DNA of 62,392 bases, filler included, from Nitrospiraceae bacterium (GCA_002726235.1; 7 parts of 7 records of this genome joined end to end with filler, not necessarily neighbours in it); one strand, 5' to 3'. Shown: positions 31,300-51,100, counted from the first letter of the whole stretch. Notes: generated from the letters alone by a model not told the origin. A program made the numbers and translations.

Positions 31300-34200
31300 T
31301 TAACCTTTAACAGAGGAAGAAAGAAAACTAGAAAGTTCTTGTCGCGCCAACCGCCCGAGAGAACCTCTGTTATCGTAGTATTTTCTAACCTCAGTATCAG
31401 TGATGAAGGCGGAGTCGGCAGTGCGGCCACGAGAAGGCTTATCAGCCCAGTTGTCCTTAGTGTTGACGTAGGACACAGAGAAGGAGAAATCCTCTTCGAC
31501 GAGGAAATTGACGGATTCGATAATCGCAGCATTGAGAGAAGGAGAAGTCTTGCTCTTACCCTTTTGAGCAGCGGCGACAACACTAGTGTTATCGATGCGG
31601 ATGTCGACGTTTTTGTTCTTGAGAAGTCGTTCTTTGAAGTGAGTGAGAGCGAGCCAGAGGGCGCGGGCTTCGAGTTCAGCGATTGTTTCAGCAGAAGGAT
31701 TGTGGATTTCTTTATCCCACTTACCACCAATAATTGCAACCGAGCCATCAGAAGAGATGAAGTAGGCTCCCCAGCCGGAGACAGAAGCATCAGTGAAAAG
31801 AAGATCGTAGTATTTATTTTTATTATTGTTGACATTTTCACCAGACGCAGGCAAGGAGAGAGAGGATTTTGCAGATTTCAACCACTTGTTGAGCTGGTCG
31901 CAGACGGAGCGTGGAAGTTCAACCTTGGTGTCGAGCGGCGTACCACGGTTGAGTTTGGAAACTTGACGGTTGGCCCACTTCATGGCGTAGAAGTAGTTGC
32001 CAGGGACTATGCGGAGCACACTAGAGCAGAAGAAGAGGCGGGAGATATCTTTCTCGAGATCGGTGATGAGGATTTCAGAGCCGTAGGCGTAGGACTGCGG
32101 GAGTTTCGAGAGAGTCTTGGAGGCGACGGAGACCTTGTGGTTCTTGTGGTCGAAGTGAATACCGATGAAGTCGTATTCGTCAGCAGCAGTGACATCACCA
32201 CCCTTCCAGGTGACATTGCAGGCCTTTCCAACGAGACGGATGCGATCGAGGTCGAGTTGAACATCTTCACGATTACCAGCAGTGCGGAAGCCATCGATCC
32301 AGACGGAGGTGCGAGTAGCAGCGGAGGCGAGCTTGACAGTTTCACCATTAATAACAGCAGTAGGCTTGACGGCGGTCATCTTACCAGCGATCGTTTCGAC
32401 GATGAGTTGCATCAATTCAGCGGAAGTGCGGAGGCCCATCGGAAGGCGAGTGAGTTCGTACCAGTTCTTCTCAGCATCGCAGAAGCGGAGCATGCGGCGG
32501 AATTCCTTGGGGATGACGACTTGGAAGAAGGAGATCTTGCAATCACCAGTACCAGCAGTTTCACGACGAACATCATCGATGAAGAAACCAGGAGCACGGA
32601 GCTGAGACATTTGAGGTTGATACTTGGCGACATCTTCGAGGTAGTCGTTGACGCAGTGGGTCCAGAGGATGGAACGGAGGCGTTGCTTCTTATCGGAGTC
32701 GAGTTCGACGACGTTGAACATGGTGTTCTGACCAACGGTGTTGCAGACATCTTCGGCAGGCACAGGAGCGGCGATACCATCAGCAGCGAGTTGTCGAGCG
32801 TGTTGAGGAAGATAGCGGCTTTGCTTCTCGGCGACGTTGTTCAAACGAGCTTGCTTCTCGGCGGAGATTTCATTAGAGAGATGACTAAGAGCGTCGGCGA
32901 AGGTGTTCTTCCAGAGAGTTTCGAAACGGCGAAGATGAGTGTCGGACATGAAGGTCTTGAGGCGTTCGAGATCGATGACCATGTCCTTGACGTTGTGGGA
33001 GTGAAGACGGATTGTTCTGTTCTGTTCATCATTGGCGGTAGAAGAAGAGTGAGACTTGCGGGCGAAAGTGTGCTTGGTGCGGTACTGGACGTAATCGTAG
33101 AGGTCCAACCAGCGAGCGTTTTCAAGAGCAGCAGAAGGAGAAGGAGAAGCAGCATCTAAAGAAGGCGAGTTGCTTTTTGAGTTCCGAACATTCTTGCGAG
33201 AAGAACCTTGTTGTTGATGTAACGAATTGTCGACTCCGGGAAGTGAGGATTCTGCTTGTCCTGATGCTTGGCCATGATCGGAAGAACGCGGAAGTCGAGC
33301 AGATCCTGATCGATGAACTGAACGAGCTTGTCCAGCGTCGTTCGCTTGAAGGAGTGACAAGTCAGGTTGCGGAGGATTCGGTCCTTCTTCAGCCAAGCAA
33401 GCATTTGATTGGTCGACTTGGGACACAACAACTGATCCTTCTTTAATTTCGAGATCTGACTTTTGAGAAGACGGAGCAGATGAGGATGTTTTTCTTCCAC
33501 CAACACTGTGAAGTTCACCGGACGGAACGGCTTCACTCTTGACGTTTTGATTGCTGACCCCCAACAAATCACGATTTCGTTCCTCTGAAGACACTGATGA
33601 TGGATGATGAAGTTGGCCTTGACGAGTTTCACCAGATCGCCCCACCTGCTTGCTGTTTTGTACGCCAGGTAGATGCACGCTTGAAGACGAGGATTGTTTG
33701 TTGCTGAGTTGTGAAGAAGATGTTGAAGTTGGGTGTCTGTCATCACCGGAGCCTGTTTTGGAGATTGGCTTGCCATCATTACACGACGACTCTTGAGGAA
33801 GTACGAGAGATTGTACGAGTCTCCCATTTCCAGCTCCACCATCAGAGTTTTGAGATTCTTGGCGTAATCCAGTTGAGTTGACGCCATTAACGGTTCCAGC
33901 TTGTTGTTGCGAAGGACTCGACGGTCCAGGACGAAGTTGATTAGACGAAGGTCTGTTGGAAGATGGTGTTGCTGATCGTTTGTTTCGGTCATGTAGTTGA
34001 TTGCGTTGGAGAGGAGGCTTGCCTTCTTGGTCCACGTTTCCTTCACGAACATGTTTTGAACTTGTTGCTTGAGATTCAGAATCCATGGATCCTGGATGTT
34101 GCAGCGCTTGAGAGACGATAGGATCACTTGACGAGCTACCTGCGACGACGTGAGCTTGTTGCTGTTGTTGTTGTTGTTGTTCATTTCGTTCAGCGGATCG

Positions 34201-34821
34201 AAGGTAGTCGAGCCACGCGGCGGTGACGGCTTGGTTGTGGTGCTTGGCGAAGACACGACGTTGAGAGTGGAAGGCGCGCCACTCTTTGCTGTTGCGCTTG
34301 ATGCCCATCTGACGCGGCGTGAAGAATTTCTTGGTTTCAGGGTTTGTCTGGAAGTAACGATTCCAGTACTTCGGCTTGAAATCTTCAGCNTGGATGAGAA
34401 CTTGAGTTTCGATGAAGGAGAAGTCGTTGNATGACGAAGGNGGACCTTTGAGAAGTTTGAAGTTGTCGAGGGATTCCGGGATGTACTCTTGCGGAATGCG
34501 GGAGGCGAGGTCCGACGTTGAGGAGGAAGAAGATGTTGCAATTGCTCTTGAGGAGGCTTTGTTTTGTTTTGAACTTGAACTTGAAGAAGATGATTGTTGA
34601 CGACGTGACTCTGCGGCTTCAACCGNAGCTTGAATTTTGTTGTTGTTGCTGTTGGAGGCGGAGACGGCTTGCGGCGCAGAGTTAATTTGATTGGTGTTGT
34701 TGGTGACGNTGTTTCCTTGTTGTTGAGATGATGATGAAACGGATTCGGTTGTCGTACTTGAATTTTTATCGCGGGCTGCATCACTGACGACATTCAGTGA
34801 GCTCCCGCCGANGCGTTTCCC
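31300..34821 (-). CDS. VIPER/DIRS-order RT-RNase H, probably expressed as a -1 frameshift fusion with gag
   Basis: GDCKISFFQV, RLPMG, VWIDG, FIGIHFDH; RNase H LFTDASVSGWG, IAELEARA, IDNT, NWADKPSR. The frame is open back to 34854, beyond the called ATG at 34308. Confidence 0.85.
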   Translation of the reverse strand, partial: GKRXGGSSLNVVSDAARDKNSSTTTESVSSSSQQQGNXVTNNTNQINSAPQAVSASNSNNNKIQAXVEAAESRRQQSSSSSSSSKQNKASSRAIATSSSSSTSDLASRIPQEYIPESLDNFKLLKGXPSSXNDFSFIETQVLIXAEDFKPKYWNRYFQTNPETKKFFTPRQMGIKRNSKEWRAFHSQRRVFAKHHNQAVTAAWLDYLRSAERNEQQQQQQQQAHVVAGSSSSDPIVSQALQHPGSMDSESQATSSKHVREGNVDQEGKPPLQRNQLHDRNKRSATPSSNRPSSNQLRPGPSSPSQQQAGTVNGVNSTGLRQESQNSDGGAGNGRLVQSLVLPQESSCNDGKPISKTGSGDDRHPTSTSSSQLSNKQSSSSSVHLPGVQNSKQVGRSGETRQGQLHHPSSVSSEERNRDLLGVSNQNVKSEAVPSGELHSVGGRKTSSSAPSSQKSDLEIKEGSVVVSQVDQSNACLAEEGPNPPQPDLSLLQANDAGQARSVHRSGSARLPRSSDHGQASGQAESSLPGVDNSLHQQQGSSRKNVRNSKSNSPSLDAASPSPSAALENARWLDLYDYVQYRTKHTFARKSHSSSTANDEQNRTIRLHSHNVKDMVIDLERLKTFMSDTHLRRFETLWKNTFADALSHLSNEISAEKQARLNNVAEKQSRYLPQHARQLAADGIAAPVPAEDVCNTVGQNTMFNVVELDSDKKQRLRSILWTHCVNDYLEDVAKYQPQMSQLRAPGFFIDDVRRETAGTGDCKISFFQVVIPKEFRRMLRFCDAEKNWYELTRLPMGLRTSAELMQLIVETIAGKMTAVKPTAVINGETVKLASAATRTSVWIDGFRTAGNREDVQLDLDRIRLVGKACNVTWKGGDVTAADEYDFIGIHFDHKNHKVSVASKTLSKLPQSYAYGSEILITDLEKDISRLFFCSSVLRIVPGNYFYAMKWANRQVSKLNRGTPLDTKVELPRSVCDQLNKWLKSAKSSLSLPASGENVNNNKNKYYDLLFTDASVSGWGAYFISSDGSVAIIGGKWDKEIHNPSAETIAELEARALWLALTHFKERLLKNKNVDIRIDNTSVVAAAQKGKSKTSPSLNAAIIESVNFLVEEDFSFSVSYVNTKDNWADKPSRGRTADSAFITDTEVRKYYDNRGSLGRLARQELSSFLSSSVKG
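33156..34184 (-). CDS. Tyrosine recombinase of a YR retrotransposon, overlapping the RT ORF
   Basis: ASRWGD (R), IKT (K), HSFKR (HxxR), AKH, TIRY (Y). Probable start is ATG 34184; the frame is open to 34793. Confidence 0.88.
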   Translation of the reverse strand: MNNNNNNSNKLTSSQVARQVILSSLKRCNIQDPWILNLKQQVQNMFVKETWTKKASLLSNAINYMTETNDQQHHLPTDLRLINFVLDRRVLRNNKLEPLMASTQLDYAKNLKTLMVELEMGDSYNLSYFLKSRRVMMASQSPKQAPVMTDTQLQHLLHNSATNNPRLQACIYLAYKTASRWGDLVKLVKANFIIHHQCLQRNEIVICWGSAIKTSRVKPFRPVNFTVLVEEKHPHLLRLLKSQISKLKKDQLLCPKSTNQMLAWLKKDRILRNLTCHSFKRTTLDKLVQFIDQDLLDFRVLPIMAKHQDKQNPHFPESTIRYINNKVLLARMFGTQKATRLL

Positions 34822-36836
34822 GACGAAGTGTTGTTGTTGCCACCGGAAGAACGATTATTATTATTATTGTTGTAGTTGTTCTTGTTTCGATTATTATTGT
34901 TATTATTATTACCANCACCACCTTTCTTCTTGAAACCATTGAAACCACCCTTGCGTCGAGGAGCCATGGTGCTGTTTTGGGCNGCAGCGGAGTGGGGGGT
35001 GTGTTGATCAAGTTCGAAGACGTTTTTGAATCCATTGTAGTTGAATTCAGGATTTCTCCAACTATCAGCCTTGGCTTGAAGCAAAACGAGCGTCTTGTCG
35101 AATTGTTGCTCCATGAGCTTGAACATGAATTCAGCGTGCTCGCGGTCGTCACTCTCGTCGTTTTCGTCGAAGTTCTCGAAACTTGAAGCGAACATGATGG
35201 CGGTCGTAGCTGAGCTGAGGAAGTACTTCACCATTTCCTTGTTCTTGGAGCTTTCAGTCAAACCCCAGGATTGTTTGCCGAGTTCGAGAAGAGCCTTGGT
35301 GATTTCAACTTCTCGTTGCTGATTGCCGTTGACGTGGGTGAGGCAGTTGTTCGCACGTTCTGCGTACTCGCGGAGGGACGTGCAGCCGGAGAAGATACCG
35401 CCCATTGCGGAAGTAGTGGCGAAAGGACGGCGGTTGTTGTTGTTGACTTGAGCTGGAGAAGCGGTCGATGGAGATTGCTTGACAGCCTTGACAATANTAT
35501 CAGCGAAGGTTTCGAAGACTTTCGCCATCTCACCAACCTGAGCTCCTGTTGCGACGTTGCGGTCGTTGGCAACTTGGGCAGCATCATCATCACGGGGATT
35601 GGGAGAGCCTTGAGCGAAGGAGACAGCAGAAGCGCCGTTGCGCGTTGGAGCAACAGAAGGAGTGTGACCTTTAGCACGGATGTTGGGGTCAGAAGCGAGA
35701 GCCTTGGAAGAAGCTTGTTCGGTGATGAACTGGGTGTCGAAGATGACGTGGTAGTAGACGACGAGGCGGTTGGGGAAAGGAGCAAGGATCTGNGCAGGCT
35801 TCGGTCTCAATTTTCCCTCAGGGTCCTTTTCGACGAAGTGCTTGATGTTTTGGCCGATGGCGGTGACGTAATCCTTGAGCGCTTCCTGCCAGTTGGTGTC
35901 GAGCGCATCGGGTGCCAACCAACCGACGACAGGCTCCCCTTCTTCGTTGTAACGGGCGATGCCACGCCAGTGGTAGTTCTTGTCGGGTCCTTCAACTTCA
36001 GCGTAACGCCATTCAGCACGGACACAAACACCACCAGACTTGGGAACGTATTGCTTGAACTTCTCGGCGAGGAGACGGTGATCAATACCGTTTCTGTCAC
36101 GCAATTCACCAGAGCCACCGATGACTAGAACACTGTTATCTTGAAGACCGCCATCAGCGGAATCGGTTGAGGCAGCCATGTTGGAAGGAGGAGNTTGTTG
36201 TTGTTGTTGAGTTTGACTTGAACTTTGAGTAGGAGCAGGCGTAGGAGCAGGAGCAGGAGTAGGAGCAGCAGCAGGAGCTTGGGGCTGAGTCGTTGCGACA
36301 GCAGGAACAGGAGGAGGTTGAACTGGAGAAGCGGGTTCGGGNGAAGATTTGGCAGCGGCTTCGAAGCGAGCTAAATCTTCTTGTTGAGGAGGCTTGTTGC
36401 TGTTCTTGGAGATGGCTTCACGGAGAACGGCAAGATTGTATTCGGGAACTTCACAGCCTTCCGAAATAATACGACGAGGAGTATCGACGAGTTGTTGGAC
36501 TTCTTCAGATGAGGCAGAGGCAGCAGAGGAGCTGATGATGCTGACGTTACCAGAGATGTCGTGTTGAGCGAACTTTCCTTCAATTAATTCCAAACCAGTC
36601 GAGAGAGGATCTTCACTGGAAATGAGACGCTTGAGAAAGAGGATGAGCTTGTAGATTTCTTCACGCTGTTCTTCAGTGTAGGCGTGAGGGGTGTTGTCAA
36701 TGATAGATTCGAAATCAGGCAAGTACTTTCCAGATTCACGGAGATAACTTTCGACAGTCGTGACAGGTGCGTTGGAAGTGATGGAGAAGGTGGGGTAGAT
36801 GAAGATTGACTTGACGGCGTTCCAATCGAAGTCCAT
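34794..36836 (-). CDS. Gag-like ORF1 of a VIPER-like element
   Basis: 680-aa ORF upstream of YR and RT with a basic/Asn-rich C-tail; assigned by position only. Confidence 0.6.
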   Translation of the reverse strand: MDFDWNAVKSIFIYPTFSITSNAPVTTVESYLRESGKYLPDFESIIDNTPHAYTEEQREEIYKLILFLKRLISSEDPLSTGLELIEGKFAQHDISGNVSIISSSAASASSEEVQQLVDTPRRIISEGCEVPEYNLAVLREAISKNSNKPPQQEDLARFEAAAKSXPEPASPVQPPPVPAVATTQPQAPAAAPTPAPAPTPAPTQSSSQTQQQQQXPPSNMAASTDSADGGLQDNSVLVIGGSGELRDRNGIDHRLLAEKFKQYVPKSGGVCVRAEWRYAEVEGPDKNYHWRGIARYNEEGEPVVGWLAPDALDTNWQEALKDYVTAIGQNIKHFVEKDPEGKLRPKPXQILAPFPNRLVVYYHVIFDTQFITEQASSKALASDPNIRAKGHTPSVAPTRNGASAVSFAQGSPNPRDDDAAQVANDRNVATGAQVGEMAKVFETFADXIVKAVKQSPSTASPAQVNNNNRRPFATTSAMGGIFSGCTSLREYAERANNCLTHVNGNQQREVEITKALLELGKQSWGLTESSKNKEMVKYFLSSATTAIMFASSFENFDENDESDDREHAEFMFKLMEQQFDKTLVLLQAKADSWRNPEFNYNGFKNVFELDQHTPHSAXAQNSTMAPRRKGGFNGFKKKGGXGNNNNNNNRNKNNYNNNNNNRSSGGNNNTSSGNXSAGAH

Positions 36837-37396
36837 ATATTGTAACTTGAAGTTGAGTTTTAAACAGAGAATAAAACTCNAGAGACTTTTTTTTTTTTTT
36901 TTTNTGAATTAAAAAGTTNANTTGAAATATTGAAGTAACTGATGCGAGACCAGCACGACAANAAATCNCCGAACCCTGGATTTTTTTTTTTTTTTTTACN
37001 CGTCCTTTTNAAAATTCTTACCATTTGGCAACGACAGATTTTATTTTATTTGGTTTTTTTTTTTTTTTTTAACAAAGAAAAGAAAAAGGAAAAAAAAGAA
37101 AAAGAAAAGAGCACACACACATAATTAGAAAAGAAAAATATATTGGAAAAGGGAAGAGGTATATTTTTTAATCTTTTTTTTTTTTTTTTAACAAATCCAA
37201 TTCTCATCTCTCTACTATCCTCAATTCCTTATTTTCTTCGCATTCAACAATTTCCTGCGTTCTAGAACTTCGAGGATACATGATAAGAAATGATTTNNNN
37301 NNNNNNNNNNNNNNNNNNNNNNNNNNNNNNNNNNNNNNNNTTAATTAATTAANNNNNNNNNNNNNNNNNNNNNNNNNNNNNNNNNNNNNNNNNNNN

Positions 37397-40300
37397 GGTG
37401 TGCCTGTTCACAGCCCATGGTACTGCTCACCTGCATCAAAACACCCACATCCACCTCCCCTCCTGTGCCCGTCCAACAGCACACCACCACCCACATCCTC
37501 CAACTCACGCTCTCACAGGATGCACAGGGCGGACTGTGGAAACGCTGTGCATGCACCAGGTATGCCTGTTCACAGCCCATAGTACTCACAAGCTTTCACA
37601 CGACAATCCTCCGACGCAAAGAGGTGCGAAAAAACACCAACTCAGACCACGCCAGGTTGGACCTGGTTACAGCAGCGACGACAGCAGCGACGGTCCGCCC
37701 AAGCGTCGACCACGTAAACCCCCTAATAAGGTATCTCGACAACCCACAACCCCAGGTAATACCCACCAAGCCGACGCTCCCACTCCCATGGCAGCTCCAG
37801 ATAACGCGGGACAACTCCCCAGGAGACATAACCGTCCTTCCCCTATATCCCAATACATACATCCCCAGGCTACACTCCCACTCTCATTGTTGTGTTCCCT
37901 GGGGTCCGAGCTATGTAGTCTCGCCTACACTTCGCACTCACCGCAGAGAACCTACGAAACACTATCACCTTTGTCTCCACCTCTACATCCAAAACACTCC
38001 CCCTGTATCACCTTGAAGCTGCTGTTGTGTTCCATGCTACATGAGCCATTTAGTCGNGACTACACATGGTGCTCGACGCACAGAGAACCTACGCACAGCA
38101 TTCCCGGGGTCCACATGATACAAACACACAGCGCACAGAGCACCCCTCGGCACACCAGCAGGGCCCAGGGTATACCTCTGACGATAGCGGAGATGGCCCC
38201 GCACGGAGGCCCCCCTCCCATCGACGCCGACGTGTCCATGCCTCCCACCAGACCGCACCATCCCTNACCACCCTCTTCGACTTCTTCCCCCCCATACCCA
38301 CCCGTCAACAATCACACACCACCGAACAACATAATACCTGCGGTACAGACCACACTCACTCCGAAACATCGCACACTACTATAGTCGCTCCACCAGGTCA
38401 CCACCCATCCACAGTCTCCCACCCACCTCTCACAGTAACAGCCCATGCACGCGACAAAACCTCCCACAAAAATCACGGCTCAGCGACTCTGTCCTCAACT
38501 CACTGTATCACTCCCACACCCCAGCTCCTGAAACCGAACAGGTCTGGCACCACAGATACCTTCACTCCTCTGTCCACCACGACTGGCCCCACTTCCCCCA
38601 CGACTGCCAAAGNTAACCAGCTGGAGGCTAAGCCCCCACAACAGGACAGCACAGTCCCCTTCACCAATTTACTCACCAACACCTGGGCTGCCTACGACAA
38701 CACCGGCCAAATAGCAGCGTCCCTGCGAGAGGATCTCCTACACCAACTCCACACCACCATCATGACCTCTCCGGACCCAACAGCCTGGCCCACACTCTTC
38801 AATACTGTCAACGACAGTTCCAACTACATACACGTCACCTCGTTCAACTGCGATACGGATTACGCCGCCACCCCCGGACGTGGCTTCTGCTCGGTGGCAG
38901 CAGCTCATCAAATTCTGAGGTCAACNGCACCAGGAAAATACAACCCTGTGCACCTTTCCAGCGAGGAGGATACCACCGCATTATTGTCACTGGTGCAACG
39001 CTTGCTGGCCCTATGCCTCACTGCAGGCATCACTGCCACACGTATCCAAACACTGCGGCGTACACTCACCCGCATGAGGAATTCCCTCCGCTCCCCCAAC
39101 TCACAGGCCAGAGCCCTCCCCGCCAAACACTACATGGACACCGAAGACTTCCTACTCATGCTTAAACTACTACGACTCCGATTCCAGTTCTGGCAGGGAC
39201 ACCCGCTGTACCTTCAGCGTGGCTGGGTCCTCCTCAAGACGTCGACAGGAACGACTCGACACCCCCCTATACACCAGTCCACAACGTCGCGTATAGCGCA
39301 TCTCACTACTTTCTCCTCAGGATTACCGANGTCGACAGTAAGTGCACCAATGCTTCTCGTGCAGCTAGACTCTCCCTGTTGCAGCTTCTTCAGTCCGCCC
39401 AAACATCATCCCACCTCTTCACTTGTCCACATCCAGTATCACACACCANGACATCATACCAACCCCACGGCACAACCACTCCCTCCCATAACAACATGGA
39501 CACTCTACACACACCAGCGTATGCAGCTGCACAGGACNACAACACCAGCTGTATCGACATATACACCTCACCACCNCCCCCATGCACCACATCATCCCCT
39601 ACCCCTCTCTATATCACCGACGGTATGGTGACCTTGAGTATCACTCCGCGTGGACTAAGGGAAATCGAAGCCCAAACTCTACATCCCGATCAGCCTCAAC
39701 CGCCCCGCACAGCAATACAGAACGCTGGCAGAATATTCAGGCTTCATGTATCCGCGCAGAACATCCACACAGCACACGATATCCCAGCCAACGGATACTG
39801 TGCATACGGAACCCTCCATCGATTGCACATGCTCATGACCAGCAAACGACCTACAGCCACCTATTGGGAGCTCGACTTCCGGCGACCAGAGCACAGGACC
39901 TACGCAGGACAGTGGCTCAGCAACCTACTTCGAGACGTGCTCCTCCACCCTAGCTGTGACCAAACCACCATCGTCAAGCTACAACATGCTCTCACAGCCA
40001 TGACCAGCAGGCATCAACACACATACACCACCCCGGACGACATTCGTCACTGGTTATCTGTCCGCGAAATGCACTGGCTCGCCACATTCTTCACCCCCAC
40101 AACCACATGGGCCACTGATGGAGAATCAATCAGCATTGTTGGCATACCCAGCGACCCCCACGCGTACGGCCCTGCGTGGACGTCAGACGAACTCCGTGAA
40201 GCCATACTTCTGAATCTCCCTCACATAGTCCTGCACAACGCACACTTCTACATCATCAACCCTGCCGGCCTCGCCATCAACCTTGACAACGCTCTACTCA

Positions 40301-43300
40301 ACCTTGAACCACACATTCAAGTGCGTGAACCCAGCGTTCAGCGCGACGTCCCGCCCATTAATGCACGCCCACAACATCCCACCAGCCCCGTAGCCACACC
40401 CACATGCCCTCCTGCGCCTTCAGAGACCACAGTGGCCGACATCATACCATCACCAGACACCATAAACTCCTCCCCCCACAATTCTACATCTAGGCCACGG
40501 AAAACTCCCCGGACAAAAGGCAACCGGACCCCCACACTCCCCACCAGGACACAGCCCCCTCGTAAAGCCCGACACGCCCAGTCCTATGCAGACCTCCCTG
40601 ACACAGTCCCTACACATACATTATACTGTCCACACGTGCCCTTCCGCACCTTACTCCAAGCAGCGAATCCACCCCAACCGCTCACATGGGACCCTACACT
40701 CAAATATAAAGTCCTGATGGGCCTAGCAGACACCCTGCCCAAAGGAAATGCCTTATACGCCGGAGAGCAGATCCCGGCCCATGCCATCATTTCCGAGTGC
40801 ACTGGCCAAAGACTCTCTATCCTGGAAGCCCGGTCCACGGAGCGTTCCTCCGACTATCTCGTCCAAGACACACAAGGAACATTCGTAATAGACGCCAGGG
40901 ACAGGAAAAGCAAACGCATACTTTGCGCAGCCGGATACATCAACGACCCGCTACAGGCCAATGCCGCCAACGTAGAGTTCTACACAAAAACGGGACGGAT
41001 ATACATACGAGCATTACGCAAAATCAACCCCCACGAAGAACTCCTCGTCAACTACGGGTACCAGTATTGGGAAGACCAAAAGTGGTCGACAGAGAGATCC
41101 TCCTCCAAGCAAGAGCGGCGTATGCCGAAGATATTGCGCTCCGAGAGCAGGAATGGCACACCTTACTCTCCCAAAAGCAGTCGCCACCACGGCAGACCCT
41201 CACCCTCCCCGAACCTTCGCGCAGTCCATTAACACACGCCACACATTTCAAATTCTCAACGTGGAACGTCAATGGCAACCCTTCCAGCAACCCCGGAAAA
41301 ATAGAGGCCATACTCCACTACTTTCGCTCTCAAAGTCTAGATTGCCTTTACCTCCTCGACGTACGGCTCTCACAAAGACAAGCAGCCTACCTAGACGACT
41401 ATATACAGGACCAGATCCCAGGGGTTCTCGTATGCCGCTTTCTTAACACGAAACCGAAGCTCGGACCCACTGACCCACACATGGGGGGCGCCCTCGCGGT
41501 GATAAGTGAAACATGGAAAGGGCGCATCCGATATACCAATTCTGACTGTACGGGCCTCGGCCTCATATCTCGCATCGAATTTCACACTGGCAGACCAGAC
41601 ATCGACGACCGACTCACCATAATAGGAGCATACCTACCCCCTAAACCTGCGACTGCTGGCCCGTGCACACTGTGGACACATCACTACGAGCCTTTGGAAG
41701 AGCGACGCCCAAAAATGGTGCCTCACGACCGTATTCCATCCTCACGAACATCCTTACAAAATGGATTGTTAAAGCCAGGGCCAACGGCCACACAGTCCTT
41801 GTAGGCGGTGACTTCAATGCCTCTCTCGAGGGCCATGCTGGAAAGCGAGACCTACGTGGAATAGCAACATCCCTCCAACTTACAGCCCCTCTTATACAGA
41901 CCCTAAACACTGAGGACCCGTACTTCACCTTCTTCCGGAAAGACCGCGGAATCTCCAGAATAGACCACATTCTACATACACCTCTTCCCACATACATACA
42001 AATTTCTGGCAACGGGTGCTACACCTCGGACGCCCTCACGGCAGCAACTTTTGACCACAGACCGGTCTGGACCGACCTCTGCATCAGTGGAACAGGACCC
42101 CCCCTGCCGAAGGAGCAACACCTTCAGATCCCGCCAAGGCTTAACATCAATCCCGCCGATCAGGAAATGGTGGAGGAATACCAACAGCATCTCAGCACAC
42201 ATCATCAATCCCTCCCGGAGCCCTCGGAACACCCACACCCTGCCGACCGCGCCGCCACCAAACTAGCACTAATCCATCGCATCACCATCGACGCGGCTCA
42301 CGACACACGTAGCGCAGATAGAACGAAGAAAACACGCATTCACCACCTCTGCCAACGCAAACGTTCCCGCTTCAAAGACGGCTTTTCTGCGGAAATGAGA
42401 GTTATTCAAACAGCACTCCACTTAGTCATCTACCTAAAGAGAAAGTTTTTCAACAGAGCCGGCTATCTCCACCCTCATGTAGATGACACACGTCTCTACA
42501 GTCTTACACGAAGAGGCCTCCAGCGATGGGAGGTCACCATAGCCGCCCTGGACCACGCTTCAGAGGACCCATCCCACCCACCCACCACCATCATCAAGCC
42601 TGCCGTGGATCCACGCCAGATGCTGACATGGACTGTTGCGACCATCAATAGCACACACTTTGACACCCTACGGGATAACCTTACCCGAATGCTCCAAGGA
42701 AGAGCAAGAACAGAAATGCGGAAGCGTATGACCCACAGGACCCACACCATCCAAGCCCACCTGGAACTCCAACACATCGGAAAAGTCCTTCAGACAATAG
42801 GATTGAAGCGCAAACAGACGCCACCCCTCACCCGACTCACCCTAGAGGACGGAGCCACCCTAACCCTCCCCATAGACATACAGGACGAGCTGAACAAACA
42901 TTTCACAGCCCACCACTCCATCCCATCCGGACTTGACCCAGTCGCCCACAAGCTACATCATGACGACACCTGGTGGCACGAGCTCGCAGCTGGCGCCGAC
43001 ATGAACACACCCTTGCATCCACACTCCGCCATTCCCGATCACCACCAGCTCGGCCTACGAAACCTATGCAAAACAAAGGTTACCTCCGCCACAGCTAAAA
43101 AGATCCAAGACGCTCTACGACAGCAGATCACAATAAGCGAGTTCCACTCCACTCTGGACGGGATGGCCAAGGATAAAGCGCCCGGACCATCCATGGTCAC
43201 CACCAACATGATAAAGAAATGGACCCCTGAAATAAAGATTGAAGTTTTAGGCCTCCTCCAAACCCTCTGGACCCATCGCCATGTGCCACGCTGGTGGAGA

Positions 43301-44562
43301 GACAGAGTCATGACGCCACTTCTTAAAAAACCAGGACACACGTCTCTAAAGAACCTCCGACCGATAGGGCTCCTAGAGGTTTTGCGCAAACTAATGACCC
43401 GTATCATCACCCACCGGCTCCTCCACATATGGGAAGAAGATGAAGTCCTACACCCTGCGCAACACGGCTATCGATGGCGACACGGCACGGACACGGCCAT
43501 TCTACGAGTCCTCGCGGCCACGGAACTGGCCAAACTTACCGGGCATGTGAAACTCTGCACCTTCTGGGACTTTCAAAAGGCCTTCGACTCCATCGCACCC
43601 AATCTTCTCAAATTAGCATGGGCAAGACTTGGTGTCCCCGATGACACGATCAAATGGCTAAGCGACCTCGACGATGGGGGTCGCACCTTCATCTGGACCC
43701 CACACATGGCCGACAACATCGATCCCCGATCACTCGAAGAACTGCTTGGCTCAGATGGCTCCTTTATCCAGCACCCTGACATGGGATTCTCCGCGGAGAG
43801 AGGGGTCACACAAGGTGGAACTGAATCCACAGTTGCATGGATCGTCATCTTTGACATGATCCTATGCTGGTCTGACCTACATGATGATATAGCCAAGATG
43901 AGGCGTACGCAGATGACCTCTCCCAAATCACAACTTCCATTGAGGCCACTCAGCTCAAGGCCGACAAACTCTCATCCTTCTGCGCCTTCTCCGGAATGCA
44001 ACTAAACATCCCCAAAACTGAATGCATTGCCCTGGGAGCCCCATTTGCGGTGACGGCCATGTTAGAATCAAACCCACACATCATCATAAGAGACTGGAAC
44101 TGGTGCCCACACCCCATCCCCATCCGAACAACCACCAATTCCACCAAGTATCTCGGCGTACAACTTCCATTCTCAGTAAAGGACACCGACTCCCACAGCT
44201 GGTGCACCACCTACATAGCCACATCCACGGCAGTTCTACGATCCAAATGCGCGACACCTGACTGCAAGCTACTCGTCCTCAACACACAAATACTCCCGAC
44301 CCTACTATACAAGGCCACCAAAGCATCCTGGACATACGCTAAATACATCGCCATAGACAAACTACTCGCGCAGGCCGCTAGGAAAATACTCCGTCTCCCC
44401 CCTGGATATCCCACGGATCTTATCTACCTTCCCCCGAAATACAAAGGGCTTGGACTGCGCAAATTTTCAACCCACGCCCAGACTCAGAAATGGCATACTC
44501 TTCAACGAGCCCTCACACTCGGAGGACAGCCCAGAGTGCGACCTGGGCATAAAACCTGGTGA
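37397..44562 (+). mobile_element. APE-type non-LTR retrotransposon (LINE) with OTU-like and SET domains, several frameshifts
   Basis: APE (FSTWNVNG, GAYLPP, GGDFNA, SRIDHI, DHRPV), RT (KAPGPS, LRPIGL, QHGYR, DFQKAFDS, GVTQG, YADD at 43906-43917, YLGV, GLGL) split over the ORFs starting at 40797, 41663 and 43996; uniform C/A-rich strand bias. Confidence 0.88.
40741..41070 (+). CDS. SET domain (lysine methyltransferase-like) within the LINE coding region
   Basis: KGNALYAGEQI...ISECTG...FVIDA...AGYINDP...NVEF...IRALRKINPHEELLVNYGYQYW. Confidence 0.85.
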
Positions 44563-44806
44563 ACGGTCGAAACCTGGGAAAATTTTACAAATGATACTGC
44601 TAACTAAAATTAGACAGCGTTTTGTTTAAACTAGTGTAGTAGGTATTGCATTGATGCATTTTTAATGCATTTTGATTATATTTTAAAGTCATTAGAGTGG
44701 TTATAANNNNNNNNNNNNNNNNNNNNNNNNNNNNNNNNNNNNNNNNNNNNTTAATTAATTAANNNNNNNNNNNNNNNNNNNNNNNNNNNNNNNNNNNNNN
44801 NNNNNN

Positions 44807-46660
44807 TACACAGATGAAAATGGAATTGTTCGTAAACGCCGGGGAAGACTCCCTGGGCAGAGAGCAAAACCATGGTGGAAAAAGCCTGGTAGGAAAAAGG
44901 CCAAGGCTAACGCCTGTTCAGCCAACACCCTAGATGGCGAAGACGATGGAGATACAGATTTATTAGAACTGCTTCACGAAAAGCGTAGTCTTAAGTCACA
45001 GAATGAAAGTGCCTATCAATATAACATCCAGCTAACGTATGCAAAATGCATGCAAGCTCCTGACGCGGTAAAATGGGTAGAAGCTGATTCGGAAGAACAG
45101 CTGAAACTCGTTGCAAAAGGATGCTGGCGGGACGTTTGTGATGATGATGATTTTGACCCTTCTCGGGACGAAGTCATCCCCATCGTGACAATATACACTA
45201 GGAAGCGTGACGGTCGCTACAAATGTAGGGCTGTAGCACTGGGAAATCGTCAACGGGGCACAAGCAAGGCGGAAGTTTATTCACCAACGATAAGCCACGC
45301 TTGTAACCGTTACATTGCTACCCATGCTGCGGCGAACGGCCACCACCTTTTCCAATTTGACATCACCCTCGCGTTTATCAATTCGAAAATTGACGACGAG
45401 CGAGTGTTCTGTCGATTACCCAAGCATTGGGGGGGGGAAAAGGTACGCCTCATTAGAGCTTTGTACGGACTAAAGATCAGTCCGAGGAAATGGTTCGATA
45501 CCTATCGAGCTCTCCTGGAAAAGCAAAAATGGGAAATGTGCCCATCTGAACCGGGGTTGTTCAGAAAAGGGGACATGCTCCTAGGGGTGTATGTAGACGA
45601 CACTTTATTGTGTGGTCCGGACGCCGAGCGGTGTAAAGAGGAAATGGACAAAATTATGAAAGTTTTCTCTGGCACTGTGGTCGATCCGATCAAAATTCAC
45701 GATGATGGCACAGAAGAACGTGATTTGCTAGGAGCAACCTTGCTCTTTAACCGAGAAAAGCGTTTTATGAAGGTCCATATGGAAAATTCCATAAAGAAAG
45801 TGTTGAAGAGATTCAACATGGAAGGTTGCAAAAAGGTAGTTACGCCTTTTGCAGCATACACGGACCTCTCTGGCGGTGGCGAGAAAGAATTTCCGATGAG
45901 ACAGTTATGCGGATGTTTAAATTACATCGCAGTAATTTGTCGCCCTGACATTGCATTTGCTTGTCAGAGGGTTTCGGGATTCGCCGACAAACCGACAGGA
46001 AACGCGATAACGGCTGCGAAACGTATTCTAAAGTACCTTTCTGGCACTCTAGATTACGGAGTTTCGTATTCTGTTGATAATGAGACCGCTTTTCGTGAAA
46101 TTTACACCAAAGTGTTACAAGAAAACGACCCAGACCTCGAAGATTTCAAAGATCTACCACATAATGTTGCATTTTGCGATGCAGATTTTTGTGGGTGCCC
46201 GATCACATTGAAATCGACGTCTGGTAGTATTATGTACTACAGGGGGTGCCCGATTTTTTGGAAGTCGAAACGTCAGAGTATCCGTACTCACTCGACGTGC
46301 GAATCTGAGTACGTTAGTATGTATGATTCGATTCGGCTGATCCAAAGTCAGGGTTATCTCAGGTGGTTTCTTGACAACAAGTCCGAACTACCCTTAGTAT
46401 TCTCAGACAACCAGAGTGCGTTGGCACTTTCCAAAACATCGGTTGCAACGAAAAAGTCCAAGCACTATGCACTTCGCTACATGCTTGTTCGGGACTATTT
46501 CAAGAGTTTTGGATATGTACCGACGGACCTGAATTTGTCCGACCCTCTTACGAAGCCCTTGTCACGTCAGAAAAGCATACAGATGTTTAAACACGATGCT
46601 GGTACTCTTGACGTTGATTCTGCAAGGTGTTGCTTTGTGAACTTTCGAAACTTAGGTTAG
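44807..46660 (+). CDS. Copia pol 3' part (RT-RNase H), unit 1
   Basis: YKCRAVALG, QFDITLAF, ALYGLK, YVDD, CDADF, ESEY, SDNQSA, DPLTK; near-identical to 50382-52235. Confidence 0.95.
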   Translation, partial: YTDENGIVRKRRGRLPGQRAKPWWKKPGRKKAKANACSANTLDGEDDGDTDLLELLHEKRSLKSQNESAYQYNIQLTYAKCMQAPDAVKWVEADSEEQLKLVAKGCWRDVCDDDDFDPSRDEVIPIVTIYTRKRDGRYKCRAVALGNRQRGTSKAEVYSPTISHACNRYIATHAAANGHHLFQFDITLAFINSKIDDERVFCRLPKHWGGEKVRLIRALYGLKISPRKWFDTYRALLEKQKWEMCPSEPGLFRKGDMLLGVYVDDTLLCGPDAERCKEEMDKIMKVFSGTVVDPIKIHDDGTEERDLLGATLLFNREKRFMKVHMENSIKKVLKRFNMEGCKKVVTPFAAYTDLSGGGEKEFPMRQLCGCLNYIAVICRPDIAFACQRVSGFADKPTGNAITAAKRILKYLSGTLDYGVSYSVDNETAFREIYTKVLQENDPDLEDFKDLPHNVAFCDADFCGCPITLKSTSGSIMYYRGCPIFWKSKRQSIRTHSTCESEYVSMYDSIRLIQSQGYLRWFLDNKSELPLVFSDNQSALALSKTSVATKKSKHYALRYMLVRDYFKSFGYVPTDLNLSDPLTKPLSRQKSIQMFKHDAGTLDVDSARCCFVNFRNLG

Positions 46661-46684
46661 GTACATAAGTTTCGGGGGGGGGAA

Positions 46685-47192
46685 TGTTGGGTGTGTATAC
46701 GACAAAAGTGTATTTTGTGTGTACTAGTTCGATAAATCTGAATTCTCCATTGTAAATCTTTGAATGTCATGAATTCTCTATGGGTATCTTGGAAAGTGTG
46801 AAATGGTGTGGTTAGAACATGAGAATGTGCGAATGAATATTCGATGAATGTTTAAGCTCTGTGTTGTGTGAACTATGCAAATTCCGTGTGGTCATTGGTA
46901 AGAATGTCTTTCTGAATATCTAGAATGTGGGATTTCAATGCTGATATGAATGCTGAAATGTGAGATCATTTATGTGATAGAAATTCTAGGTAAACGTTCT
47001 ATCGGACGTGTCCTAGCAGTTTCTTGATATTTTTACGTAAATCAATTGACAAATTGATAGGATTACGTGAGTACTCTGTTACTCGCTAAAACGTACGTTG
47101 TATCTACAGATTGATATAAGTTCATTGGAAATACCAAGTGATTTCATTGAAGAAGTGATATTGGCTCTTTGTGAATGTGATTTGTGTCAACA
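46685..47192 (+). repeat. Copia LTR (508 bp) shared between tandem units
   Basis: TGTTG...CAACA termini, preceded by a G-run PPT (about 46674-46684). Confidence 0.9.
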
Positions 47193-47288
47193 TTCTCACG
47201 TAACCTTGAGTTGCCAAAATTTGATCTTCATTGCGATTTCTAAGTAATTTCAACCTAGAAATTTAGTTTCACCTCTCTACAACCAAAA

Positions 47289-48155
47289 ATGGCGAACGAT
47301 GCTGCCCCAAGCTCCAAGCATTTGCCCACGTTCACGGGAAAAACGTCGGGAATGACCATTGACGGCGTTAAGATGAACGGCGCCACGTACTCCGACTGGA
47401 GATACAAATTGCAAGGAAAAGCACGCTCCCAAGGGGAAAATATTTGGTTGTATATGACCTCCGACCCAGGCGCCCCGGAAAACCTCTCGGAAGAAGAGAA
47501 GAAGAAGTTCGATGGATTTCTCACCATTATTACCGATTCGCTCTCCGATGGCGCTTTACAGGTTGTTAAGCTGATCCGGGAGCAAAATCCCCAAAAGGTG
47601 TTGGCCGCCCTAGATGCTGCGTTCTTCAATCAGTCCGTCCTTTCCCGAGTGTCCGCGATCACCGATTTGATCAATGTTAAGCAGAAAGTCGGTGAATCCG
47701 TTGATGCCTTTGTTTCGGCGAAAAAGTCGATTTGTCGGGAACAGCTCGGATCCAAAATTTCCATCGAAGAGTTGATGATGGGGGCCGTCATTGCGGGATG
47801 TTTGGATGACTATGCGGATTTGGTGTCTACGGCGACTGCATCTAGTGATGCTGTTCAAGTCACCGAAGATGACCTCGATAACTTGTTGGACAAGTTACGG
47901 ACCAAGGAGAATCGCCTAAAGGATGCTCCGAGGAAAGAGGTGGAAATCCAAAACGCAAAGGCCTTGACGGCCGAGGCCATCCAAACCGCGATGTCAGCCG
48001 CCCTGAAGGAACACGGCGTAAAGAAGTCCAACAACAAGCCGAAGAAAACCCCGAAGAAGAAAACCCCGAAGAAGAACACTCCGAAGAAGAAAGGACCACG
48101 ATGCTACAAATGCCAAGAATATGGGCACATCCAGGCAAATTGCCCGAAGAAGTGA
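47289..48155 (+). CDS. Copia gag
   Basis: NGATYSDW, Q..GESV motif, CCHC knuckle CYKCQEYGHIQANC. Confidence 0.92.
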   Translation: MANDAAPSSKHLPTFTGKTSGMTIDGVKMNGATYSDWRYKLQGKARSQGENIWLYMTSDPGAPENLSEEEKKKFDGFLTIITDSLSDGALQVVKLIREQNPQKVLAALDAAFFNQSVLSRVSAITDLINVKQKVGESVDAFVSAKKSICREQLGSKISIEELMMGAVIAGCLDDYADLVSTATASSDAVQVTEDDLDNLLDKLRTKENRLKDAPRKEVEIQNAKALTAEAIQTAMSAALKEHGVKKSNNKPKKTPKKKTPKKNTPKKKGPRCYKCQEYGHIQANCPKK

Positions 48156-51100
48156 AAGGGGATTTTAGAAAAAAATGGGGTGAGAGATGAAACAAAGTCT
48201 CTTTTGAAAGAGGGAGACACTGAATTTTCGGGTCATGGAAACCATGATTTGAATTTTTCTCAAAATCGTAAAAATTTTGAGAGAAACTGTCTGAATTGTA
48301 ATGATGTTGACGGTATCTCTCAAGATTGTCTCGGTTTTGGGAGCAATTTTCAGAATTTTTTTCAGAATTTTGAAGATCTCGAGTGTACAGAGGTTCCTTG
48401 TGGGAATTGTTTCCTATCTGGCTCCTCTGTTCCATGTTGTTTCAAAGCATTTTCAGCGAAATTGGGTAATGAAATTATCAATTGTAGAAATTCAAATTCT
48501 AGATCCCTTATGGAAAATCAGTATGGTTATAGGGGAAAACGAAGCCTAAAGAGGCGAAAGATTGAAATTCAAGATGATTGTTGTTCGGGATTTAAAGAAG
48601 CGTTCTGCTCTTTAGGGCATATTTCAGAAATCAGCATAAAGGGCTTGAAAACATGCATAGGGAAATCGAATGATTCGCATAAAAAGTCACATATTTCTCA
48701 AGGGATAATCGATTCTGGGGCATCNCATCACATGACGGGAGATGAAAANCANATAGAGAGATTTCTTGATAAATGGATTGATTTGACTGGTGCTGGGGGT
48801 CCCTTGCGAGGGCCAGCTCGGTTTTGCGTGTTCAAATCGAATGATTTGGGACTAAAAACTGGTATATTTCATAANGATTTGAATGGTTTCTTGATTTCGG
48901 TTTTTCAATTGGTTTTGGATGGATTTGACGTTCATTTCTGTACGGATTCTAAGATTGTTCATCGTGAAAGTGGAAATGTGGTTAAATTTCTGTTCAAAGA
49001 TCGTCTACCTAGGGTAAAATGCGAATTTTATGATACGAGACTTCCTGATCTCAGTTTGGGTGCAGGTTTTGCAACCCAAGCGGCGCAAGGGAGGCGCACC
49101 AACCGAGAAAAGTACCTGGAGCATTGCCGAAATGCACATTTCTACTGTGGCGGAAAGGTAGAATGTGCTAGTTGTGACATGGCGAAAGACCATGGTGGTC
49201 TGTCTCACGCCAAAGAGCGTCCAACGTGGGCAAAGTCGACTCGTCGGCTAGAACAGGTGAACTTTGATTACAGTGGCCCCTGGCCACCCTCGGTGAATGG
49301 TAAACGTTGGCTCCTTGTTGCTGTCGATGATTTTGTCGACTGGGTGGAAGGAATTCCGGTGGAAAACCGGAATGATTGCGGTTCTGCACTAGAAAATTAT
49401 ATTTCTAGGATNGGGAAAATGGAACGTGTACGCTCCGATAATGCAAAGGAGTTTAAAGATCCCGGTAGCTCATGGGTGAAAACCTGCAAAAAGTGCAAGG
49501 TAGAAAACACCTACAGCGTGCAGTATGCACCTAGTACCAATGGGAAATGTGAAAGGTGCGTAAGGATGTTCGGAAACGCCATTAGGTCGAACATGGTGAA
49601 TGTCGATCCGCGGGTCTGGGAGTATTGTGCAGATTACGTCTCACACACTTGGAACAGGCTGAACCGCAAATCGGTAAAACATTCATCACCTTTCTACAGA
49701 ATCTACAATCGCGAACCTTCCCGAGCCTACTGGAAGAGGTTCGGTTGCCTGGCTTTTACTAAGCAGCATGTGATTCGGTCCGAAGCTGATATGACTTCTA
49801 AGTTAAAAAACCGTTACAAACCTGGAATTTTTCTAGGTTACAACAAAAATGGCACCTACAAGGTGGGCCATTTTAACAGGGATAATCGCACAGCCTCTGG
49901 CTGGCGGTGGGATATCACTGAGAATAAAACGGTAAAGTTTCGGGAAGAACACATCGTTAGTGACATAGAAAGCCTAAAGGAAGGAAAGGGTTGTTTTGTT
50001 CCTTTTGTTACGCCTGATTTGCTTCGTGATTCAATATTTGAGAACGACGATGTGGGTCTGTCGGGAAGTCGCGAGCCCGATGTAAGTGCCTCTTCGCCGA
50101 TTTGTCCAAATTTGAATTCGAACACGTCTGAAACGGCTGTAACATCTGGAAATAAGACCCTTTTGAGCGAGGAAAATGTAGATTTCGTTCCACCCGACGA
50201 CGAACGACGTAGCGATTGTGAAAAAGTTACGTCGGACGTTCGAGAAAATTCAGTTTTGGATGAAAATACTGCAGTCCCCGCCAAGGACGATGCAGATCCA
50301 GCTGAATCGCAGAACCAACCTCAGTCTCGTATTGACACCACCTGTGTAGGGGATGAGGAGCAAGCTCCTGATCCCAGGATCTACACAGATGAAAATGGAA
50401 TTGTTCGTAAACGCCGGGGAAGACTCCCTGGGCAGAGAGCAAAACCATGGTGGAAAAAGCCTGGTAGGAAAAAGGCCAAGGCTAACGCCTGTTCAGCCAA
50501 CACCCTAGATGGCGAAGACGATGGAGATACAGATTTATTAGAACTGCTTCACGAAAAGCGTAGTCTTAAGTCACAGAATGAAAGTGCCTATCAATATAAC
50601 ATCCAGCTAACGTATGCAAAATGCATGCAAGCTCCTGACGCGGTAAAATGGGTAGAAGCTGATTCGGAAGAACAGCTGAAACTCGTTGCAAAAGGATGCT
50701 GGCGGGACGTTTGTGATGATGATGATTTTGACCCTTCTCGGGACGAAGTCATCCCCATCGTGACAATATACACTAGGAAGCGTGACGGTCGCTACAAATG
50801 TAGGGCTGTAGCACTGGGAAATCGTCAACGGGGCACAAGCAAGGCGGAAGTTTATTCACCAACGATAAGCCACGCTTGTAACCGTTACATTGCTACCCAT
50901 GCTGCGGCGAACGGCCACCACCTTTTCCAATTTGACATCACCCTCGCGTTTATCAATTCGAAAATTGACGACGAGCGAGTGTTCTGTCGATTACCCAAGC
51001 ATTGGGGGGGGGAAAAGGTACGCCTCATTAGAGCTTTGTACGGACTAAAGATCAGTCCGAGGAAATGGTTCGATACCTATCGAGCTCTCCTGGAAAAGCA

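Follow-up and report, generated by a model that had tools for sequence, protein, structure and literature searches.

A LINE retrotransposon fragment with a SET domain directly upstream of its endonuclease and reverse transcriptase

Domains and extent of the element

The window analysed here is a 62,392-base stretch of DNA in which seven contigs are joined by six spacers. Its fifth contig (37397-44706, 7310 bases) carries part of a long interspersed nuclear element (LINE), referred to below as SET-LINE, and it is strongly supported that the element's own open reading frame (ORF) has a SET domain directly N-terminal of an APE endonuclease and a reverse transcriptase (RT). Two relatives serve as references throughout: P0002 (957 amino acids (aa), 45% identical to the window), in which SET, APE and the start of the RT lie in one ORF, and P0157 (3175 aa, 37-49% identical to the window), which falls in the same cluster as P0002, lies on an 11.3-kb contig and is colinear over its aa 620-2527 with window positions 38654-44526. 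The enzymatic part of the element contains the following features.

40741-41070, plus strand: SET domain, from the Pfam SET family, a structural model and fold matches; a conserved C-terminal flank (W..L..A..Y) extends to about 41150, past a frameshift site
40741-40764, 40789-40806, 40933-40950 and 41041-41070, plus strand: SET motifs KGNALYAG, ISECTG, GYINDP and LLVNYGYQYW, respectively
41247..42070, plus strand: APE domain; Pfam Exo_endo_phos covers the C-terminal half (E 2.5e-6), and the N-terminal half is recognised by similarity to P0002 in its APE
41247, 41804, 41957 and 42050, plus strand: APE motifs FKFSTWNV, GGDFNAS, RIDHILH and FDHRPVW, respectively
42071..43324, plus strand: APE-RT linker, 37% identical to P0157 and matching the same region of P0002, P0003, P0005 and P0007
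43325..44166, plus strand: RT domain, RVT_1 at E 1.3e-11 (43325-43864 and 43903-44166; tail E 0.0013)
43906-43917, plus strand: YADD, the RT catalytic motif

The Pfam SET profile (PF00856) matches aa 527-631 of ORF 39166..41232 (40744-41058) over its full length (1-105), with an E-value of 9.4e-10 and a score of 39.3 bits against a curated cut-off of 22.4. Exo_endo_phos and RVT_1 were found on the same strand, and the SET motifs lie exactly where the initial annotation, made from the sequence alone, had placed them. An AlphaFold model of 40660-41100, built with 14 aligned family sequences, has a predicted local distance difference test score (pLDDT) of 82.6; its best Foldseek matches in the PDB (SETD8, MLL1/3, NSD1, PRDM5, G9a and SET7/9; E 2e-7 to 3e-6) are all SET or PR domains, so the predicted structure confirms the SET fold. 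The family-invariant positions G49, Y66, N95, N104, Y132, Y136 and W137 are present in the window copy, which departs from the family at position 31 (Ala for Gly) and position 47 (Cys for Tyr). Two residues are invariant in 14 of 14 SET sequences: the Asn of '(Y/R)(I/A)ND', which aligns with the cofactor-binding 'NH' Asn of 'ANHS' in SETD7, and the Tyr of 'YG', which aligns with 'AYGYD' of the same enzyme.

The catalytic motifs of both APE and RT are intact in the window. The whole RVT_1 profile (2-205) is covered, at E 9.6e-20, in P0165, an unbroken ENA protein, and the nearest RT of solved structure is that of human L1 ORF2p (E 1.2e-6); a zf-RVT match in the relative P0132 is sub-threshold. 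At about 41340 the stretch 'LLDVRL' contains an Asp that is present, by eye, in the whole group (as 'QD(V/T)R' or 'LDVR'), at the place where L1-type endonucleases have a metal-binding Glu ('QE'); the remaining APE motifs are canonical. SET, APE and RT have an excess of C over G and of A over T in common (GC skew -0.16, -0.23 and -0.20; AT skew +0.30, +0.15 and +0.15, respectively), which ends abruptly at 44539, and the C/A-rich bias reported earlier for all three domains is therefore real. APE follows SET after 59 codons, in agreement with the distance of about 60 codons first annotated, but the single frameshift given with it becomes three from SET to the end, with at least one more upstream.

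The element extends on both sides of this enzymatic core, as set out below.

37397..38650, plus strand: 5' part of the giant ORF, N-terminal and cut by the contig start; low quality, with Ns at 38057, 38266 and 38613
37665-37697 (frame 0) and 38168-38200 (frame 2), plus strand: motif GYSSDDSSDGP / GYTSDDSGDGP, which also occurs twice in the N-terminus of P0157
38654..39318, plus strand: Cys..His module, equivalent to module 2 of P0157, with GRGFCSVAA (38876-38902, frame 2) and SHYFLL (39301-39318, frame 1)
39706..40330, plus strand: Cys..His module 3, with NGYCAYGT (39790-39813) and NAHFYIINP (40237-40263), 43% identical to P0157 aa 911-1120
40331..40740, plus strand: linker from module 3 to SET, rich in Pro, Thr and basic residues, 24% identical to P0157 (33 of 138 columns, 36 gaps)
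44167..44533, plus strand: post-RT region, at the end of which homology to the relatives ceases
44539..44706, no strand assigned: AT-rich tail, unrelated, with a GC content of 0.33 against 0.52-0.59 in the element

Upstream, P0157 aa 620-792 match 38654-39235 by tblastn (25% identity, E 2.9e-12), and at least one frameshift lies between 39235 and 39301, inside this Cys..His module. The spacing of the Cys motif to the His motif is about 150-170 residues in each module. The contig has eight single Ns in all, between 38057 and 39576, of which one falls in the module (38926) and four just 3' of it (39330, 39449, 39538 and 39576). A tblastn search with P0157 found nothing upstream of 38654, where homology is by motif only; the sequence of 37397..38650 is C/A-rich like the rest of the element. 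As the modules and motifs in common with P0157 reach 37665, the element fills the contig from its first base, and the start first annotated at 38860 has to be moved upstream, with homology to P0157 from 38654 and the common motifs from 37665. In P0157 the 'YSSDxSGDGP' motif has copies near aa 73 and 548; both there and in the window this acidic, Ser-rich repeat is followed by basic residues and, downstream, by the Cys..His modules. In several relatives a related '(N/S)Y(N/S)(D/E)D' precedes SET by a few dozen residues. Conceivable roles for the motif are those of a linker, of a localisation signal and of a processing site. 2A-like 'NPGP' skipping sites were also considered for the linkers and were rejected, with one match among the fetched proteins, at an unrelated position of P0077.

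At the 3' end, P0157 aligns to 44526 (its aa 2527 of 3175) and P0007 to 44532 (aa 1401 of 2017); because these alignments end at about 44530, some 600 C-terminal residues are missing from the window. The region 39577-44706 was compared with contigs of four public runs, and no contig of the four bridges the junction at 44533/44539. Loose ends at 44533 continue with different letters in 4 of 4 runs, and depth falls across the junction (24 to 15, 16 to 5 and 1345 to 41). The lack of a bridge, together with the changes in depth and composition, indicates that a misjoin, or a junction private to this assembly, accounts for the last 168 bases; as the junction is unsupported, the stop at 44560 does not belong to the element. 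The end initially set at 44562 thus holds as far as the homology goes, to about 44530, and the last 30 or so bases (44534-44562) are without support in the four runs. Repeats in the contig amount to three short two-copy families and one 24-nt tandem, and a repeat scan found no promoter-like monomers in it.

Continuity of the reading frame and relatives of the element

The reading frame changes, as deposited, at about 39235-39301 and at 41091, 41676 and 43887. The last three changes coincide with an extra dinucleotide in a short repeat.

41091..41092, plus strand: extra AG in AGAGAG, frame 1 to 0; missing from contigs of runs X1, X2 and X11
41676..41677, plus strand: extra AC in ACAC, frame 0 to 2; missing from X1, X2 and X11, and P0165 reads across
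43887..43888, plus strand: extra AT in ATAT, frame 2 to 1; missing from X1, X2 and X11, and P0164, P0165, P0167 and P0168 read across

Every contig of X1, X2 and X11 that covers one of these positions has two letters fewer there. With the three dinucleotides removed, the frame is open from 39166 to the stop at 44560 (1796 codons), so that 39166-44562 contains a single, terminal stop in 1797 codons, against 35 stops in that frame as deposited. Proteins from other assemblies agree with this reading: P0164, P0165, P0167 and P0168 are 93.6-100% identical to the window over the aligned segments (99-100% except in the last segment of P0167), and all four cross 43887 in one ORF, P0165 crossing 41676 as well. 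Two database proteins, P0001 (780 aa) and P0163 (188 aa), are identical to the broken frames of the window; as the frameshifts checked are missing from independent data, they are pieces of one ORF.

The absence of the three frameshifts from independent assemblies indicates that they are errors of the window assembly or private to it. The comparison fits both alternatives, since the window itself may derive from one of these runs. Since all three tested frameshifts are missing from independent data, this copy should not be read as dead. Two contigs bridge SET into the RT, namely record 3 of X1 (40315-44510) and record 26 of X2 (39760-44335). The stretch 38600-44540 is present in 18 public runs of about 14 studies, at 88-95% of sampled 31-mers, and these runs comprise marine, seawater and hydrocarbon metagenomes and four coded organisms. 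In X1, 10 of 19 aligned pieces are only 90-95% alike, which fits paralogous copies.

Relatives were collected by searching P0002 against 1.84 billion representatives, which gave 1383 matches at E up to 0.001. The best 150 of the 1383 were taken, and the counts of SET, APE and RT matches given here are among 162 fetched proteins. The SET region of P0002 is matched by 27 of them, 11 as short SET-only pieces and 16 together with APE and/or RT. These 16 proteins form 12 clusters at 50% identity, to which P0097/P0187 and P0169 add two, giving at least 14. SET lies upstream of APE in 10 of the 12 (P0002, P0007, P0008, P0011, P0013, P0014, P0036, P0072, P0087 and P0152), although in P0007, P0011, P0036, P0087 and P0152 the SET match is by phmmer only and not by Pfam, and P0014 is 0.2 bits below the Pfam cut-off. 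P0169 (2163 aa, 36% identical) is an eleventh cluster with this order, with SET at 44-164, APE at 248-495 and RT at 945-1220. In P0157 the same order is found behind three Cys..His modules (SET 1254-1358, APE 1419-1656, RT 2113-2405).

The initial annotation had asked whether SET, APE and RT form a single ORF in further copies, and had held that copies lacking SET or a chimeric assembly would speak against its reading. The copies in X1 and X2 bridge SET to RT, P0157 and P0169 carry all three domains in a single ORF, and at least 11 clusters have the same order. These relatives show the natural form of the element to be one giant polyprotein, made up of N-terminal Cys..His modules, SET, APE, RT and a C-terminal part. 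No integrase family was found in P0157 with Pfam. P0158, which corresponds to the C-terminal part and covers an RNase-H-like 'TDGS' stretch and the Cys/His cluster of P0157, has no Pfam match.

In three clusters SET lies downstream of the RT. The order is RNase H, APE, RT, OTU, SET, Ulp1 in P0015 (3532 aa), RNase H, APE, RT, SET, OTU, Ulp1 in P0024 (3923 aa) and RT, OTU, SET in P0097/P0187 (3225/3277 aa); P0084 and P0136 have only Ulp1 behind the RT, and RNase H stands in front of APE in all of these giant LINE ORFs. SET domains from both positions carry the signature '(Y/R)(I/A)ND' and 'Y(G/S)xxYW', which points to a common source. In the P0024 cluster 7 of 11 members are full length (3918-3923 aa), near-identical and on different contigs, as would fit recent activity.

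Between the window, read through, and P0157, identity is 43% in module 3, 45% in SET and 51% in both APE and RT; it falls to 24% and 18% in the linkers flanking SET, and is 37% in the APE-RT linker. Since SET identity is near that of APE and RT and far above that of the flanking linkers, SET is kept like the core enzymes, and this pattern shows it to be an integral, selectively maintained part of the element. The window and P0157 form a pair (support 100) in a 68-row RT tree, inside a four-row group that also holds P0010 and P0003 (support 95); P0169, the cluster mate of P0010, has SET. A group of 13 rows with support 97 includes the window, P0157 and P0007. Among metagenome contigs, P0157 matched one distant locus, L001, at 23% identity.

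P0155 (1408 aa, a cluster mate of P0157), which spans the N-terminal modules, SET and the first APE residues, stems from a set of transcriptomes of marine eukaryotes. In X19, a run of polyA metatranscriptome data, contigs with 0-1 differences extend over 42780-44533. No relative was found in viral contigs with P0002 as query or in prokaryote genome contigs with P0165. The source of P0155, the polyA contigs and the lack of prokaryotic or viral relatives together indicate that the host is a marine microbial eukaryote.

Possible roles of the SET domain and the Cys..His modules

The best explanation of these observations, judged probable with its mechanism included, is that 37397-44533 is an internal fragment of an APE-type LINE, a retrotransposon without long terminal repeats, of a marine microbial eukaryote. 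LINEs integrate by target-primed reverse transcription, carried out by APE and RT. The polyprotein would be translated from the element RNA, and its APE and RT would act as in other LINEs. SET, adjoining the nuclease, would be an S-adenosylmethionine (AdoMet)-dependent lysine methyltransferase (KMT) that acts on nucleosomes at or near the APE nick or on the element's own chromatin, allowing new copies to escape silencing or drawing host repair factors to the integration intermediate. That SET methylates nucleosomal lysines, whether close to the site of integration or on the newly made copy, is given a little less than an even chance; such a chromatin-writer role is a reasonable inference from the conserved cofactor and catalytic positions of SET, its conservation as a domain and the similarity of its profile to histone KMTs.

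Several observations weigh against this reading. Asp takes the place of His in the canonical SET 'NH' motif across the whole family (14 aligned), and the window's own family has Cys for the near-invariant 'EYxG' Tyr and Ala for the second Gly of GxG, the Cys codon being the same in all runs compared. On the RT tree, where most rows are N-terminally truncated and the SET state is readable only for the others, the four SET-upstream rows need four changes, no fewer than with shuffled labels. APE is matched by 43 of the 162 proteins in which SET is not, several of them with long N-terminal regions (P0039, P0055, P0114 and P0148). The RNA evidence consists of contigs that cover parts of the ORF. 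The tree and the proteins with APE but no SET match argue against a single, simple origin of SET and suggest either that SET is old in the group, with repeated loss or relocation, or that it has been exchanged between elements. As for the Cys, PDB titles among the fold matches of SET include SET8 Y245F, Y334F and 'lysine multiple methylation', from which it follows that Tyr positions in SET8 bear on the number of methyl groups added. The 'EYxG' Tyr is, we take it, one of those positions, so that a change of product rather than a loss of function is possible.

The substrate might instead lie outside the histones, with an active SET directed at the element's own polyprotein or at a host factor such as a restriction, repair or RNA-binding protein. 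When a profile of the 14 LINE SET domains was compared with the PDB, the best match was SETD7 (E 3.5e-11), an enzyme that methylates many non-histone proteins, and one matched entry is titled as a complex with a TAF10 peptide. By eye in the alignment, the LINE SET family also lacks the Cys-rich pre-SET and post-SET clusters of dedicated histone enzymes. However, KMT2C (1.2e-10), KMT2D, EZH2, SETD8 and NSD1 score nearly as well, PRDM12 and KMT2A are also matched, and no substrate class is picked out; as no SET subfamily stands out among the matches, the substrate cannot be read from the sequence. The neighbouring DNA nuclease favours a chromatin target, and a non-histone substrate is considered unlikely.

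A further alternative is that SET does not catalyse at all and is a module binding histone tails or other proteins, tethering the integration machinery as the chromodomains of Ty3/Gypsy elements do. The substitutions described above (ND for NH in the whole family, Cys for the channel Tyr and GxA for GxG in that of the window) would suit such a module, as would the match of the PR-domain profile PRDM2_PR to the window SET (E 2.3e-6), since PR domains are in some cases weakly active or inactive. The AdoMet-contacting Asn and the C-terminal Tyr, invariant in 14 of 14 sequences, would however be superfluous in a module that only binds, and the weak single-sequence matches to SET include PRDM9 (E 0.87), which is active with a non-His residue at the NH place. 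This alternative is rated as improbable, below a non-histone substrate.

It is very improbable that the ORF is a domesticated host gene derived from a LINE, comparable to SETMAR for mariner. Near-identical sequence in the 18 runs would also be expected of a conserved host gene, and neither termini nor target-site duplications were seen in a contig that is cut 5' and has an unsupported 3' junction. On the other side stand the many diverged families with the same enzymatic core among the 1383 matches, the full-length P0024-cluster copies on different contigs, the divergent X1 pieces and the intact APE and RT motifs. An assembly chimera, or a one-off insertion beside a host SET gene, is hardly credible in spite of the poor contig quality (the single Ns, three spurious dinucleotides and the unsupported 3' end), as the strand composition is common to the domains and the independent contigs, ENA proteins and P0157, with at least 11 diverged clusters of the same order in one ORF, count as its refutation unless all share one error.

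That the Cys..His modules upstream of SET are OTU-like cysteine proteases is given somewhat better than an even chance: their motifs resemble OTU motifs, and true OTU domains adjoin SET in P0015 and P0097. In P0108 and P0170, of another cluster, a further Cys..His module lies directly upstream of SET. Three comparisons point weakly the same way. The catalytic Cys is precisely where a tblastn match (E 0.19) to the Pfam-recognised OTU of P0015 falls; an hhalign comparison with OTU domains of three LINE proteins gave E 0.028 at a probability of 1.8%; and in the protein atlas a cluster with OTU in 19% of its members is at rank 5 for module 3 (score 0.88, all scores being below 0.9). Against the OTU assignment, Pfam returned no family, OTU included, for 39616-40740 at E up to 1, and none for 38681-39241 beyond a chance-level CENP-H match (E 0.16), and the AlphaFold model of module 3 (pLDDT 42.4), in which the order of secondary structures fits a papain-like protein, is unusable for a fold search. 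The atlas had no usable match for P0002 residues 1-480. Word-based searches for relatives of the N-terminal modules found none, with residues 130-520 of the window ORF (lengths 378-1204) or residues 250-1140 of P0155 (lengths 774-2464) as query; such relatives exist nonetheless in P0155, P0157, P0108 and P0170.

The possible OTU-like modules here, and the OTU and Ulp1 domains of the relatives, might remove ubiquitin or SUMO marks as part of the same host-manipulating kit, or might process the polyprotein itself. A broader and more doubtful proposal is that of a widespread and old lineage of marine-protist LINEs whose SET, OTU and Ulp1 kit writes and erases marks on histones or repair factors at integration nucleosomes, and has been reshuffled between the N- and C-terminus. 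Should this hold true, histone methylation set in cis by a retrotransposon where it inserts would be known for the first time.

Neighbouring contigs and comparison with known systems

The remainder of the window consists of six other contigs, separated by the following spacers.

19054, 26696, 28883, 37341, 44751 and 53905: spacers, each N44-TTAATTAATTAA-N44

As the window is made of joined contigs, what lies beyond a spacer should not be taken for genomic neighbourhood. Contigs 1 (1-19009) and 7 (53961-62392) look bacterial, so the record mixes prokaryotic and eukaryotic DNA. Contig 1 is densely packed with housekeeping genes (class I W/Y tRNA synthetase, GAPDH, PGK, glucoamylase, Obg and glutamate 5-kinase), and contig 7 encodes a sigma-54-dependent activator. 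The four contigs other than these and that of SET-LINE hold retroelements, and blastn found no second copy of the SET-LINE contig among the seven contigs of the window. A single unbroken ORF of 2513 aa (19112-26650, plus strand) spans a whole contig, with RVT_1 and RT_RNaseH as in a Ty3/Gypsy-like pol and a strand skew that is strongly A- and G-rich. Contig 4 (28939-37296, minus strand) holds an RT-bearing element, with RVT_1 within 28940-31235 and upstream ORFs of 1184 and 704 aa that have no Pfam family. It was examined as a relative of SET-LINE and set aside as a different, remotely related element, with a best match of only E 4.6e-5, to P0070. Copia-type sequences occupy 44807-53860 (plus strand), with a pol-like ORF at 44811-46660, recognised by eye, and a 1359-aa ORF at 48156-52235 (plus strand) with rve, SH3_retrovirus and RVT_2.

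SET-LINE resembles APE-type LINEs such as L1 in having APE N-terminal of RT in one protein, in the motifs GDFN, IDH, DHRP and YADD and in the strong compositional skew of its coding strand. P0157 and P0007 have, by eye, a Cys/His cluster near the C-terminus, comparable to the Cys-rich C-terminus of L1 ORF2p. Unlike in L1, the APE of the full-length relative stands behind about 1400 residues that comprise repeated Cys..His modules followed by SET, the whole ORF has about 3200 aa, and no separate ORF1 was seen.

Mobile elements with a SET lysine methyltransferase have been described among DNA transposons. HarbingerS and MuDR elements of Phytophthora are listed with SET in passages of PMC12730594 that cite Repbase Reports of 2014, and the description of proto-Helentron-Pi of Phytophthora infestans gives it a SET ORF of about 153 aa (PMC4067079). 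SET-LINE is like these class II elements in carrying the domain but, as far as the descriptions in these sources go, differs in that SET is fused in frame to a retrotransposon nuclease and polymerase, whereas that of proto-Helentron is a separate ORF. SET is fused to a mariner transposase in SETMAR of primates, according to 10.1101/2021.11.30.470311 and PMC9062482. SETMAR thus also combines SET and a transposition enzyme in one protein; it is, however, one domesticated host gene, formed by the insertion of a transposon beside a SET gene, while the fusion in SET-LINE is a property of many mobile families.

Among retrotransposons, DNA methyltransferases (DNMT) occur in dinoflagellate and charophyte elements and chromodomains in Ty3/Gypsy. 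Retrotransposons with DNMT, methyl-CpG-binding (MBD) or chromodomains are mentioned in PMC5890265, PMC6673714 and 10.1101/2021.11.30.470311, with MBD in arthropod Copia. On these accounts SET-LINE is similar in having acquired a domain of the kind that writes or reads chromatin or DNA marks; the captured domain itself differs. The main text of the survey 10.1101/2021.11.30.470311 counts SET, without detail, among 823 gene models with chromatin and transposon domains, and these may include LINE fusions. In the portions consulted of a review of accessory domains in retrotransposon polyproteins, neither SET nor OTU is named (PMC6338049). A full-text literature search, which Repbase and Supplementary Table 6 of that survey lie outside, turned up no LINE described as carrying SET.

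The profile of LINE SET domains also matches vSET of PBCV-1, a chlorella virus (5.2e-7), and LegAS4 of Legionella (1.2e-6), which likewise are short SET domains without Cys-rich flanks; each is employed by a genetic parasite on the chromatin of its host. PDB titles describe the PBCV-1 SET as an H3-Lys27 methyltransferase and LegAS4 as in complex with a histone H3 peptide. Both are free-standing viral or bacterial proteins, unlike the SET of SET-LINE, which lies inside a retrotransposon polyprotein, and the similarity to them is no closer than that to cellular enzymes.

With SET in DNA transposons already known, SET-LINE is a LINE with a new accessory domain, of chromatin type. The conflict between transposons and host chromatin is usually told as the host writing silencing marks on the element, and a few elements are known to respond with readers or DNA-modifying enzymes (chromodomains, MBD, DNMT and TET). 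A domain of histone-methyltransferase type, fused to the nuclease and polymerase of a LINE, would place a chromatin writer at the integration site. With the deubiquitinase and SUMO-protease domains that relatives add, the control by a retrotransposon of the epigenetic state or repair of its own copies becomes testable, and material for this exists: public assemblies contain intact ORFs of 2100-3900 aa, the sequence occurs in many marine samples, and a related element is found in the transcriptome of a marine microbial eukaryote.

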